Shown piece by piece: positions 20,205-32,249 of a DNA stretch of 64,000 nt. The translations under genes and the position numbers were made by a program. How positions within the stretch are numbered: position 1 is the stretch's first letter; every line of letters begins with the position of its first letter. The notes below the pieces were generated by a model. The model worked only from the letters and a program-made list of their open reading frames with translations, was not told the origin of the DNA and ran no database searches. The DNA comes from Octopus vulgaris (lineage: Eukaryota): NCBI GenBank assembly GCA_951406725.2, contig OX597822.1, positions 83,576,001 to 83,640,000 on the forward strand. Direction: 5' to 3'.

Positions 20205-20450
20205 AATTCCAACAATTGAGGGTAAAATTAATTATTAATCAATTTCACCAAGTGTTCAGTATGCAAAGGGACCATTTAAGGCGAATTCAAATTATTACAT
20301 TATATAAAAGGGCTTAGTAAAATAAATTACTTCGCCGCATACTGAACTCATTAGAAATAGCAGCTAAAAAACTTTTTTAAAGCTATTTCTAATACTTAAA
20401 GAAAATCTCTCTCATATATAGCGTTTGCTTAATTCAACTCACAAAAATAT
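20205..20450. mobile_element. (TA)n-anchored structured terminus (group Q), probably PLE-derived
   Basis: Stems gttcagtatgc/gcatactgaac (20254-20264 / 20337-20347) and attagaaatagc/gctatttctaat (20350-20393); related in layout to 22098-22270, 30365-30541, 31998-32180 and 41011-41081. Confidence 0.55.
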
Positions 20451-20809
20451 ATATAGCGGAAGTTGTCTCAAATCAAATCAAATCCTGACAGATGCCATAT
20501 GTTCTCCAATCACCCAAAATCTTTTGTAACCAACATTACGCCAACAACTATTCTAGATTAATAAGGGACATATTGCCTGATTTTAAATCTAGCTGCAATT
20601 TGAACATCAAGGGTTGTTACATTTACACTCAAATGGATCACTTCCAGAAAAACGAAAAGGAAGAGACGAAAATTTAACCAAATATAAATAAAAATGGAAG
20701 ACGTGTACCAGAGAATGTAGGCTATGCCTATCATAGTAGATCACGGCATGAAGTCCTGTAAAAGATATCTATTATGTCACCAATGGGTGATTGTTTTATG
20801 TTTTATTGG

Positions 20810-21175
20810 TTCTCGGCATAAGGATACAGCCATACTGGTGCAGCTTCTTTAAAGGGTTTAGCCTAAGAAATCGACACCAGTCTTTATATTTTAAGTCTGA
20901 TAATTATTCTCTGAATTATTTTGGCCGCTTTGCTAGGTTAATTACGGGGAAATAAACAAACCAACACCTTCTTTCAAGCAATTGCACACACACACGCAGG
21001 TATGTAAATACGAAGGACTTCCATAAAGTTTCCGTCTACCAAATTCATTGAGAAGGCATTGGTTGGTTCGAGGCTATAGTAGAAGGTCCTTGCCCAAAGG
21101 GCCGCACATCGGACTGAAGACGAAACCGCTTAATTTCAAAGCGAGTTTCTTAAACACTCAGTAATATTTGCGCCT
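20810..21175 (-). mobile_element. SINE family B, diverged
   Basis: agtttccgtctaccaaattc..ggctatagtagaag..cttgcccaaag..gcgcctg, the reverse complement of the family B body and head. Confidence 0.8.
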
Positions 21176-21780
21176 GCTGTTTTTATTTATTGTAGCAGTT
21201 ACAATTCATATAGGTTCTACGGCAACTCATATTTCATTTTGGTGATAAAAAACATAAACAAGCAAACTGATTTATCAAAATGTAATAAACAGGTTTTAGA
21301 TTATTTCATTACTTCCTATTTCTCTTTCAGCAATAACTCAATGCAATAAAGTTCTCATTGAGACAGGTGTCTGCTTTTTTTTACATCTAAAATCCTAATG
21401 CAGAATATATTCAATGTGAATTAATACGTAATCATAAATATTCATACGTTGTGACAAGGAGTATTGGACAGAAAATTTCCAGACTGTAATCAATTATATC
21501 AAAAATGACTTCAAGAAGATCATACTCTGATGCACTTCTAAAATCTAGTCTAGTTACATCAACAATTTTCTTTGGGTAGACAGACTTACATTGTATCATA
21601 TACATACATATATATATATATATATATATATATATATATATATATATATATATATTTTTATATATATAAAATAAAAAATGACAACAAAAGTGTTAGACCT
21701 CGATAGTATGTATATATATATATATATATATATATATATATATATATATATATATATATATATATACATATATATATATA

Positions 21781-21877
21781 TTTTCTTCCCTTCTTTCCTG
21801 GGCGTCCAATAAAGCTTTATTTGTTCCACGTCCTCGCGTTGCTGTGTTTTTTTTTTAGTTTTCTTGTTTGGATTAAC
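21781..21877 (+). mobile_element. PLE-derived family P2 3' terminus between (TA)n arrays
   Basis: Homologous to the reverse complement of 51565-51660; both end in tttggattaac followed by (TA)n. Confidence 0.75.
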
Positions 21878-21932
21878 TATATATATATATATATATATAT
21901 ATATATATATATATATATATATATATATATAA

Positions 21933-22270
21933 CATACATATAAGAGGGATGACCACTAAGTGGACATCCAATATATTAGAAGTCGACCCCCGATGGTCTT
22001 CTTTTGTATCTTTTCATTTGTTTTGCTCGCTTACTTTCTGGCGTTTGCTAAATTTTCATGGGAACATTTCTTTCTTAGTTGTAAGACCATAGGGAAGCGA
22101 CTTCTAGCATATTGGATGTCCACTTAGTGGTCATCCAACTTATATGTATGTAATATAATTTTTCTTCATCTTCAGATTTTTCTATATGCTAGACCACTGG
22201 TTTTAAATTGATATTAATCAAATTGATATTCAATTTTTCACCTTTAATATTTTAAATTTAATACTTTAAA
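21933..22270 (-). mobile_element. Group Q terminus with an inverted partial duplication (about 53-bp arms at 21933-21985 and 22098-22151)
   Basis: catacatataag.gggatgaccactaagtggacatccaatat..tagaagtcg and its reverse complement; (TA)n on both flanks. Confidence 0.7.
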
Positions 22271-22375
22271 TTTATATATATATATATATGTGTGTGTGTG
22301 TGTGTGTGTGTGTGTGTGTGTATGTATGTATGTATTTATTTGTGTGCGTGTATGTGTGTGTGTTTGTGTGTGTAG

Positions 22376-22522
22376 TATAGGACAATCAGTAAATTGTCAA
22401 ACGGTCGAGATGAGAGCTTCGAGACATTTTCATCAAAATAGCCAATGAAAATACCTCGAAGATCTTAGATCCGTCATTTGAAACTCTGAGTTCTATTATG
22501 ACAACTTGCTGATTGTCCTATA
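22376..22522 (+). mobile_element. Short element with 24-bp terminal inverted repeats enclosing a hammerhead-like motif (22437-22497)
   Basis: tataggacaatcagtaaattgtca / tgacaacttgctgattgtcctata (22 of 24 match); inside is aatag-CCAATGA-stem-GAAA-ctctgag-TT-ctatt. Confidence 0.7.
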
Positions 22523-22574
22523 TTATATATATATATATATAAATATTTTATATATAGAGATATATATTTATATG

Positions 22575-29376: not shown

Positions 29377-30034
29377 GTATATTAAATATATGATTTAACT
29401 TCTAAAAAAGAAAGTTCAACAAATCCAATCATATTGTTCGTAAATGGAGGAGATCACATGTTAATATGGATTTTAATTACCTTTATTCAATTAGCTATAC
29501 GATCGTTTCATACAGAAAGAGAATGAATTCATGTTAAGAATTTGAGTTATCAAAAATGTAGTCATCAGTAGCAGAAATAAGAAAAAAGGCTAAAAGGACG
29601 TTAGGATTACTTAGGTACGGTGTTCTTACTCATTTTTGTAATGTGTAATTGTTCTTAGAGACATGTCTATTTCAAACATGACAGATTAGTATAAATGAGC
29701 TCATTGAAATCTCCCATAAATGAAGTAAAATCCAGGTAGGGCTGTATTTTAGGGAAAAAGATTCCCCACATAAGGAAGTACGGAAGTTTTGAATACTAGG
29801 GACTAAAATTTGTTTTAACCGTCAATAATCAATACACCTTAGTAAATTTTTTTTAATGTTTAACAGCAATCATAAAGGGAATTTATTGTCTTTCTCTTTC
29901 AAACGATCGTATAGCTAATTGAATAAAAATAATTAAAATCCATATTAACATGTAATCTCCTCTATTTACGAAAAAATATGAATGGATTTGTTGAACTTTG
30001 TTATGTTATAAGTTAAATCGTATACGTAATATAC
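29377..30034. mobile_element. Fold-back/MITE-like element with about 155-bp inverted arms (29377-29530 and 29879-30034)
   Basis: The arms share a core (tcgtaaat.gaggagat.acatgttaatatggattttaatta..tttattcaattagctatacgatcgttt) in opposite orientation; TA-rich flanks. Confidence 0.8.
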
Positions 30035-30181
30035 ATATATATAACTTTCCATATCTACTCTAATTGCCACCAGTCAATTCAAAGTAAAGTCTGAAGAAAC
30101 CACGTTAGAAATCTTGGAAACTACTCCAATTAAAGTACGAATTCACATTCAACCTTTTTATAAAATAAACACACACGTATA

Positions 30182-30363
30182 TTATATATATATATATATA
30201 TATATATATATATATATATATATATATATATATAATAATAATAATAATAATAATAATAATAATAATAATAATAATAATAATAATAATAATAATAATATAA
30301 TAATAATAATAATAATAATAATAATAATAATAATAATAATAATAATAATAATAATAATAATAA
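30182..30363. repeat. (TA)n + (AAT)n microsatellites
   Basis: Direct reading. Confidence 0.95.
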
Positions 30364-30364
30364 A

Positions 30365-30541
30365 TGGGTAAAATCATTAATGATTTATACAAAGTGGTCA
30401 GCGCGGATATAAAACCTCGTAGGTACATTTTATAAATAATTATAACAAGGGCTTGGCTTTTGCCTCACCACGCACTGAAAAATAGATGTCAAGAGACACT
30501 ATATCCACCACACAGGTTTTATATAACAAGCCCTTGTTATA
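30365..30541 (+). mobile_element. Group Q structured terminus with a short inverted duplication
   Basis: gggtaaaat..attaat..aagtggtcagcgcg..aagggctt..cgcactgaaaaatag; tataacaagggcttg is inverted at 30527-30541. Confidence 0.55.
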
Positions 30542-30637
30542 TACATATATATATATATATATATATATATATATATATATATATATATATATATATATAT
30601 ATATATATATATATATATGTATATATATATATAAATT

Positions 30638-30770
30638 AAAATGGAGAAATATTGATCAACAACGATTGCCTAACATCAATTATTACTTTTTAATACAAAT
30701 AGATTCTATCCCATCTAAAAAGTAATAATTGATGTTACTCATTTGTTGTTGATTAGTATTTCTCCATTTT
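30638..30770. repeat. (TA)n-adjacent inverted repeat with about 53-bp arms
   Basis: aaaatggagaaat..taacatcaattattactttt / aaaagtaataattgatgtta..atttctccatttt. Confidence 0.85.
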
Positions 30771-31129
30771 CTGTTTACTTTGAATTTGATTCCTGATAAA
30801 CCCATGTCTGTCATTGTCATTGCCTGTATCCTATGAGCATAATGTGCGTGCTTATGTATGCCCTGGGTTAATATTAGTAAGTATACCGCTAGTAAAATGA
30901 ATATTTTTATCCCTTAGACGTTTATTCCATCCTCTAACTCTACTAAACTTATATATATATATATATATAAGCACATATAGAGAGATACATATATGCGCAC
31001 GCACACGCACACACACACACACACACGCGCACACACACACACACACGCACATATATATATATATCAATGTTTGCACGTGTGTACCCGCACCTATGCTTTC
31101 CTCTGTAAGTACAATAAATTTTAAATAAT

Positions 31130-31335
31130 AATCGTTTTAAATATTTGTTAGAAGGCCAGCAAGTTCGTGAGAGGTGGCAAGTTGGTTACATTAACCCCAC
31201 CACTCAACTGGTACTTATTTTATCGACCTAGAACGGATAAAATGCAAAGTCAGCCTCAGCGTAATTTGAACTTAGAATGAAATGCCGCTGAACATTCTGA
31301 CCGGCGTGGTAGCGACTCTGCCACCTTGCCACCTT
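31130..31335 (-). mobile_element. SINE family A, diverged
   Basis: ctggtacttattttatcgacc..aaagtcagcctcagc..atttgaact..ctgccaccttgccacctt. Confidence 0.8.
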
Positions 31336-32249
31336 ATTGTAAATAATTATTAACACATTTCATTGTCTCAGCTAACATCTACCTTTCTATCGGTTAACAT
31401 ATATATACTATTGCATTATTGAGAGACATATTTAGGTATTCCACTGCTTTTTCTTTTGTTACCTGTTTTCTGTAGGTTGCTTGGAATTTGAAAGGCCATT
31501 CAATATTCAAATATTTGATAGAAAAGACATACATTTCAAAGTTTGGAGAATAAAAAAATACGACAAAGTATAATAGCGTGCACTAAATAATTTTACAGAA
31601 ATAACTGTTCACGTCATATTAGATAAATACAAATACATGAATTTGACATCGCTGAAATAATTCAGATTGACAACGAGAAAAAATGGCGTTGGAATTTTGG
31701 TTGATTTCATTTCTCAGGGGCAAGAAATAATTCAATTTGAATGTCCTGTGTGCAAACACTTCCATCATGTCATGGTTATACCGTTGCCAGAGTCGGAGAA
31801 AGGGTGGAAGTGTTTAATATCAGTTCGTTTCTCATATGGTCTGTGTACTATTTTCTCTAGGACGATAAAGTTAGTACTAAGGTTATACTAGATGAGGTTG
31901 GAGGTTCTAGACGATTCTACCACAAATCCTAAAAAAAAGTGCACATATATATATATATATATATATATATATATATATATATATATATATATATATTTAA
32001 AATGGTAGAAATTAATATTATTAAATAATACCAATTTGTTTGTTTCTTTTCATTTGTCTACCTCGTAAACATCTAGCGTGTTGCTAATTTGAGAACACAT
32101 TTTACGTGGTAGGATAGTTTGACGTCTATTTTTAGCATACACAAAATCTGCTTAGTGGTCTTTCCTCTTATCTATATTTAAATATATGTATATGTGTGTG
32201 TGTGTGTGTGTGTGTGCATGTGTGTATGTATGTATGTATACAATCTACA

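Follow-up and report, generated by a model that had tools for sequence, protein, structure and literature searches.

A stretch of 64,000 nucleotides from Octopus vulgaris (assembly GCA_951406725.2, contig OX597822.1, positions 83,576,001 to 83,640,000 of the forward strand), here called the window and used for all coordinates, carries a group of (TA)n-flanked sequences, group Q, whose copies are designated c1 (20.2 kb), c2 (22.1 kb), c3 (30.4 kb), c4 (32.0 kb) and c5 (41.0 kb). The copies are related, highly abundant, arranged as inversions and delimited by two recurring end sites, X and Y, and c1, c2 and c3 share one multi-stem fold. Group Q is likely to represent the 3' ends of Penelope-like retroelements (PLEs), in which the fold would dock the reverse transcriptase (RT) and expose an internal TATA priming site; the most probable reading is an RT-docking structure not described before, in an element class that is known.

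PLEs are characterized by inverted 5'-truncated copies, an optional tail of 30-40 nt and (TA)n targets (PMC8557442), and a PLE RT starts in vitro at two internal RNA sites, which define the tail (PMC11167929). The recognition of RNA by PLE RTs and the two-site ends of their copies are known from this one in vitro system, and group Q adds a fold that covaries and on which both end sites are mapped, from a family that is abundant in three or more sequenced species. Should the link to PLEs fail, group Q would remain as an abundant repeat of no assigned class whose end has a conserved structure.

Shared fold and strand of the group Q copies

The window consists of AT-rich animal DNA and has 113 rows of tandem repeats. 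An earlier note, made from the sequence alone, had proposed that c1, c2 and c3 share a layout and a stem preserved by compensatory changes; the three copies are present with the motifs and stems described, while the A-rich tail attributed to these termini is absent in c2. The strand chosen there, with the TA run at the 5' side, is not the one favoured by folding: the RNA strand is probably the opposite one, on which (TA)n most likely lies at the 3' end. In particular, the folding z values of c1 to c5 were -5.5, -5.0, -2.7, -1.9 and -6.2 toward the TA run and -2.5, -3.9, -2.2, -1.1 and -3.3 on the other strand; the fold toward the run was better in 5/5 group Q pieces versus 10/21 other microsatellite flanks, two of which reached a z of -2.6, one of the two being a fold-back.

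Read toward the TA run, the fold consists of an outer stem (Pa), a hairpin (P0), the long-range stem P1, a terminal hairpin (P3) and (TA)n, and P1 encloses a hairpin (P2a), a single-stranded A/U-rich TATA segment and a second hairpin (P2b). Without constraints c3 forms Pa, P0, P1 with its three enclosed parts, and P3; c1 forms the same set except Pa, and c2 gives P1, P2a and P3. The P1 stems differ in sequence and nevertheless pair, with 11 perfect bp in c1, 9-10 bp in c2 and 8 bp in c3, where a mismatch on the strand of the earlier note becomes a G-U pair on the opposite one. In a hand alignment of the three copies all 24 cells of P1 pair and both sides change in 6/8 columns; between c1 and c3, 34/34 cells pair over 17 named pairs, with double changes in four, compared to 26-39% of cells in slid controls.

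The relatedness of the copies and the conservation of their structure, both claimed by the earlier note, are supported by a leave-one-out model, by the shuffle rate of a layout descriptor and by the variant pattern of the whole c2 family. A covariance model built from c1 and c3 (R2) gave c2 as its top unseen match (27.2 bits, rough E 0.007) with P1 in register, the runner-up scoring 14.8 bits. The next matches of a three-copy model (R1) were c2's inverted arm (E 0.002) and c4 (E 0.12), and across the window it added no member; neither model supports the candidates at 59064-59260 and 17640-17731. The layout descriptor, fitted on these very copies, is passed by c1 and c2 and by 6/2,100 shuffles, whereas c3 fails with 7 P1 pairs in its minimum-energy fold; in a scan of the window 11/2,656 tiles pass, three on c1 and c2 and eight at the background rate, and inspection of six regions yielded no new member. 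MAFFT misaligns the full copies, and RNAalifold still recovers P1 and P2a. The best conserved motif is GA-n-CACT, directly after P1; it occurs at 26 sites in the window and has a TA run within 95 nt only at c1, c2 and c3, the copies that had been chosen.

The c2 family was surveyed in contigs of four sequencing runs that align at 80% likeness with 22005-22250. The three runs of DNA type, from three organisms, gave 2,470, 2,796 and 1,177 matching contigs. The family is clearly abundant, although contig depth does not equal copy number. A run guessed to be RNA gave 32 contigs, one of which is 12.7 kb long and ends in the element; it shows neither transcription nor strand. The family majority differs from c2 at 13 places, nine of them in helices, and makes a Watson-Crick pair at 8/9 of these; eight minor variants at paired places give a G-U pair on the RNA strand in four cases, make a pair in two and break one in two. 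The 8-bp core of P1 shows no variant at 8% or more, and loose contig ends carry a double change in P0 (AGACC/GGTCT versus AGATC/GATCT) and a variable loop on P2b. A 23-nt pattern of c2 had no match in metagenome, viral and prokaryotic collections, and the family may already be catalogued in the repeat library of PMC13282606 or in Repbase or Dfam.

In c1 (20206-20440, minus strand, Y end at 20206), next to a (TA)n run at 20148-20205 that is its putative target site, hairpin P0 (20394-20349) is followed by P1 (20347-20337 with 20264-20254), which encloses P2a (20336-20311), the single-stranded TATA segment (about 20310-20283) and P2b (20282-20271); the motif GAACACT (20257-20251) and P3 (20249-20221) complete the copy. 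Its outer stem Pa contains one mismatch and is missing from the minimum-energy fold. The main arm of c2 (22001-22272, plus strand) ends at Y at 22272, followed by (TA)n, and contains two upstream helices, U1 (22035-39/22061-65) and U2 (22040-49), then Pa (22077-82/22193-98), P0 (22084-99), P1 (22104-11/22185-92), P2a (22114-36), the single-stranded segment (22137-62, with site X at about 22151), P2b (22163-76) and P3 (22199-242). In c3 (30364-30530, minus strand), which adjoins (TTA)n/(TA)n at 30183-30363 with its Y end, the corresponding elements are Pa (30511-07/30398-94), P0 (30502-30482), P1 (30478-71/30405-398), P2a (30469-50), P2b (30424-14) and P3 (30390-68). A small hairpin further upstream has the loop AAAC in c1 (20420-20429, minus strand) and GTTT or GTGTT in c2 (22040-22049, plus strand) and c4 (about 32076-32086, plus strand), as if the loop were inverted.

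The pseudoknot noticed in c2 exists as a possible interleaved pairing between AGTGGT (22126-31) and ACCACT (22193-98), but it competes with two nested helices and is not required. In fact, 22126-31 is also the 3' strand of P2a, whose inner four pairs have a probability of 0.99, and in the family majority a further AGTGGT lies upstream, at 22077-82, and pairs in nested fashion with the same ACCACT, so that no pseudoknot is needed; the G at 22080 that completes this upstream motif accounts for 92-95% of depth, and c3 forms the nested Pa stem without constraint. An alternative pairing of the inner segment with the segment after P1 comprises 9 bp in c2, 11 bp in c1 and 4-5 bp in c3, and the c1 alternative, of similar position, may represent a possible second conformer in these predicted folds.

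Inversions, end sites and the class of the element

The arrangement of the copies agrees with the earlier description as retroelement termini. Copies c2, c3, c4 and c5 are head-to-head inverted pairs with a microsatellite on both sides, in which an inverted 5'-truncated copy lies beside the main one, as in PLEs. Site Y, found in c1 to c5, lies 3-30 nt past P3, and site X lies in the TATA strand just after P2a, where the inverted arm of c2, the stub of c3 and the long arm of c4 end; three independent insertions thus stop at the same site. Group Q has two alternative 3' ends, as PLEs with a tail do, and X and Y are separated by 77 nt in c3 and by about 105-120 nt in the c2 family.

The inverted second copy of c2 (21932-22000, minus strand) stops at X just after P2a, in the TATA segment; it is 88% identical to 22083-22157, with 70 nt duplicated between the arms. 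The (TA)n run beside it (21878-21931) is pure (TA)n and not repeats of the TATG-type segment, and is common to this arm and to the end of another repeat family, a relative of which at 51566-51700 has a hammerhead-like core. The inverted stub of c3 (30520-30543, plus strand) has its X end after AAGCCCTTGTTATA and is followed by (TA)n at 30545-30633. The pieces at 32.0 and 41.0 kb, listed by the earlier note as partial relatives, are real: c4 consists of a short arm (31997-32040, minus strand), which is a terminal hairpin with two G-U pairs on this strand and a Y end against (TA)n at 31945-31996, and of a long arm (32036-32185, plus strand), a diverged relative that stops at X and matches c2 at E 8e-6 by nhmmer. 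In c5 (41012-41081, plus strand), with (TA)n on both sides, the terminal hairpin (41032-41073) and Y end are accompanied by an inverted stub at 41012-41024. Of the 15 joints listed from other copies, 8 bring opposite strands together, at varied places. A fold-back at 30634-30771 (minus strand), whose TA-side end resembles the Y end of c4, is only a candidate member with putative homology, and was missed by model R1. Two other (TA)n-flanked fold-backs of the window, at 6030-6357 and about 15700-15880, are built in the same way, with a short arm and a long arm that has a tail of about 63 and 45 nt, respectively.

These features would be accounted for if the endonuclease encoded by the element nicked (TA)n, the RT bound the folded RNA and complementary DNA (cDNA) synthesis began at one of two places: X, the single-stranded TATA within the P1 loop, or Y, which directly follows the terminal hairpin. 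A start on each of the opposite strands, followed by early termination, would leave one short arm that ends at X and one long arm whose 77-120 nt tail ends at Y. Known PLEs (PMC8557442; Poseidon PAc, PMC11167929) share with group Q the inverted truncated copies, the microsatellite ends, the optional tail and the two end sites matching two internal RT starts, one of them in structured RNA (PMC11167929); they differ in having a 30-40 nt tail and one stem-loop, compared to a 77-120 nt tail, a large multi-junction fold and no open reading frame (ORF) seen in group Q. Since no ORF is linked to the copies, the PLE class is inferred, and for the clade the best guess is a lineage without a hammerhead near its end. 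PLEs also form partial tandems with direct pseudo-long terminal repeats (pLTRs), and the window contains no full-length copy. Naiad PLEs, present in Octopus, are like group Q in their (TA)n target, their inversions and the lack of a canonical hammerhead; they are marked by an N-terminal GIY-YIG domain and by CxC and DKA motifs. By eye, Naiad_Obim's and Naiad_Ovul's 3' untranslated regions (UTRs; PMC8557442 supplement) show GAAA before CUGAUGA among four interleaved stems, an arrangement like a permuted, pseudoknotted hammerhead.

Through a PLE remnant at 50.9-51.2 kb, proteins of about 700 aa were reached that have the Hydra-clade motifs RWK and DKT, and a comparison set of 79 loci from other hosts was taken from the best 80 of 468. 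A GAGCACT-type motif follows 61/87 hammerhead-core matches in these loci, a number that includes duplicates and false cores, and nearly always closes a GCTC..GAGC hairpin; it occurs 154 times on the sense strand versus 16 on the other, and a second motif lies 54-82 nt later in 24 of 43 distinct first hairpins. Behind the hammerhead, the pLTRs of Hydra elements thus have GCTC..GAGC-ACT hairpins in tandem, spaced by about 60 nt (L008:1381-1465, L019:323-405, L038:268-347; set L002-L079), the invariance seen in alignment A10 being due to selection of its members. Among 14 two-copy comparisons eight were informative (in the others three copies ran to the contig end, two matched throughout and one had a false core), and 7/8 informative 3' copies stop 0-12 nt before GCTC. 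The Hydra comparison gives a minimal hairpin behind each end site, and these tandem hairpins are likely to be RT start signals. The Hydra-1_Ajap consensus (PMC8557442) begins with both hairpins, and the word hairpin is absent from the main text of that paper.

Group Q weakly resembles this arrangement. Both have a (TA)n target and two end sites in TATA-rich single strands; GAGCACT lies 34-43 nt before Y in the Hydra clade, and in group Q a stem and then GA-n-CACT lie 29-74 nt before it, c1 having GTTC..GAAC-ACTT where Hydra elements have GCTC..GAGC-ACT. In Hydra elements a hammerhead precedes the first hairpin by about 45-65 nt and X lies before the hairpin, whereas group Q has no hammerhead within 270 nt of Y and has X inside the P1 loop. 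The window itself holds a Hydra-like PLE 5' remnant (50661-51294, minus strand) that resembles the published start of the Hydra-1_Obim protein, with the RWK motif at 50912-51238, direct repeats at 50661-50744 and 51211-51294 and degenerate versions of both hairpins, the second at about 51188; a Hydra-like endonuclease C-terminus (62363-62857, minus strand; tblastn E 1e-4) is followed by a 3' UTR, a degenerate hammerhead and a (TA)n end.

The RTs of PLEs are the sister group of telomerase (TERT), and an enclosed internal priming strand with hairpins therefore bears on the origin of telomerase RNA. In topology only, group Q is like the template core of telomerase RNA (PMC4993307), with a helix that encloses the core, a hairpin beside the template on the 5' side of an internal single strand, a helix downstream and a hairpin at the distal end. 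It differs in having a TATA-rich segment and no telomeric template, no Rfam telomerase match and many copies; moreover, its cDNA evidently runs through the hairpin and does not stop there, and there is no sign of repeat addition. The likeness is an analogy and not membership. A wider and distinctly speculative proposal, to which we give a modest chance, is that PLE RTs start cDNA at conserved RNA docking modules. In the Hydra clade these would be the tandem GCTC..GAGC-ACT hairpins, each lying right behind an end site; the module of group Q would be a larger fold, free of a hammerhead and like the telomerase core in topology, that holds a TATA template open for the nicked (TA)n primer. If true, such modules would explain the PLE tail and offer a living model of the RNA ancestral to telomerase RNA. 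The element class is known; in a literature search outside Repbase, Dfam and subscription journals no description was found of the group Q fold or of the tandem Hydra hairpins.

Contrary points and rival explanations

Several results weigh against the assignment of group Q to PLE 3' ends or against the fold on which it rests. The sample is small, with three full copies, and with DNA energies the strand preference is kept for c1 and c3 and gone for c2. The pair count of c1 and c3 is equalled by 29/500 shuffles, so that these two copies alone are inconclusive. In the c2 family, the majority letter at 22112 breaks the terminal P1 pair, contig depth shows no clean 5'-truncation gradient, and in c2 the helices U1, Pa, P0 and P2b were placed once the majority letters were known, which makes the apparent restoration of pairs in them partly circular; the counterparts in c3 (Pa, P0, P2b) and c1 (P0, P2b) are independent of the reads. 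The stub of c5 ends at a third site, inside P3, and a tail of 77-120 nt exceeds the published 30-40 nt. With Hydra-like proteins as the only queries, no RT or GIY-YIG remnant adjoins any group Q copy in the window, and no hammerhead, which canonical PLEs carry, lies within 270 nt of Y. Among published 3' ends compared by eye (17/54 Naiad and 3/6 Hydra) none is like group Q, and motif searches of the PMC8557442 supplement, in which line breaks can hide matches, gave no relevant match. Model R1 found nothing in the 79 Hydra loci, and a Hydra tail model (R3) missed group Q, a weak test because it also missed the Hydra-like remnant of the window. Group Q is not filed under the Hydra clade because the models do not cross-hit, X lies inside a stem and there is no hammerhead.

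That the copies are unrelated AT-rich sequences whose stems arose by chance or as by-products of fold-back is hardly credible: by plain nhmmer search c1 and c3 are connected only at E 0.15 and c2 is linked to neither, but the leave-one-out match to c2, the 6/2,100 passing shuffles and the family-wide variant pattern have already largely refuted it. Within the retroelements, the 3' ends of a microsatellite-targeting non-LTR element (R4/Dong- or Tx1-like) or of a dependant resembling a short interspersed nuclear element, with twin priming at TATA, appear unlikely. Twin priming does not duplicate sequence, and the arms of c2 duplicate 70 nt. A long interspersed nuclear element (LINE) remnant at 1494-2157 (plus strand), which we take to be of the restriction-endonuclease type and for which Pfam gave no relevant match, has a 3' UTR that ends at (ATA)n and in this favours such an origin, but that 3' UTR is otherwise unlike group Q, which has no evident poly(A) or repeat tail of its own. 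The TATA-rich X offers microhomology to a (TA)n primer, and Dong-R4 and L1-Tx1 elements are active in Octopus (PMC13282606, Table 1). An origin as termini of a DNA element that passes through a single-stranded intermediate (Helitron/HUH type), or as Fanzor ghost ends with an omega-RNA scaffold at the border, is still less probable. As single-stranded DNA the helices are also stable (z -3.2 to -4.3 for the strand toward TA), and the omega-RNAs of Fanzors, which are found in molluscs, have structure and sit at the right end (PMC10432273); against this, arm length and breakpoint vary among copies with no fixed pair of terminal inverted repeats, and the stretches translated hold no transposase or Fanzor ORF. 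The 3' end of Helitrons has CTRR behind a GC-rich hairpin, and CTRR is absent from the five Y ends.

The earlier note had left the function between a ribozyme and an RT-binding element; RT binding fits better, and no conserved catalytic core is seen in the copies. Its view that a hammerhead does not explain the copies is borne out by a hammerhead-core scan with seven sites in the window and none in group Q, and there is no Rfam match at gathering score, as its suggestion of an undescribed RNA implied. The 126 Rfam matches to E 10 in 19900-32300 are microsatellite-driven or due to chance, and none of them is to a ribozyme or telomerase family. A new self-cleaving ribozyme substituting for the hammerhead, which might alternate between nested stem and pseudoknot, is very improbable on this evidence, to which are added the poor conservation of the junction nucleotides except GA-n-CACT, the mere 4-5 bp of alternative pairing in c3 and a hammerhead that could sit beyond the 270 nt upstream; in its favour are two linked multi-way junctions kept across diverged copies, the alternative pairing of the inner and post-P1 segments in c2 (9 bp) and c1 (11 bp), the unclear function of PLE hammerheads and Naiads without canonical ones (PMC8557442). 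The type I hammerheads of PLE pLTRs (PMC4209133) likewise lie near PLE ends, and U1 and U2 of c2 are loosely in the order of stems I and II, but the RNA strand of group Q has neither a CUGANGA nor a GAAA core. This region of c2 (22035-22069, plus strand), with the stem order and without the CUGANGA core, repeats a stem-plus-GAAC motif 67 nt before P1 and is possibly a decayed ribozyme or a second docking module. A hammerhead look-alike on the strand read by the earlier note (CUGAAGA..GAAA in c2) was rejected as a hairpin whose loop varies in the family, and a twister reading of AAGCCC, based on what we take to be the twister consensus, was rejected for want of a P4 stem.

Other microsatellite-anchored repeats of the window

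Two further TA-anchored families have hammerhead-like cores 100-130 nt from the TA run, one at 9638-9830, 15446-15580, 47646-47770 and 51313-51507 and the other at 21783-21877 and 51566-51700, and they converge on one run at 51508-51565. Additional microsatellite-anchored ends with terminal hairpins, whose relation to group Q is unproven, lie at 17640-17731 (plus strand), 59064-59260 (minus strand) and 58496-58553. A LINE reverse transcriptase remnant at 47722-48578 (plus strand) matches Pfam RVT_1 at E 7e-4, below the curated cut-off.

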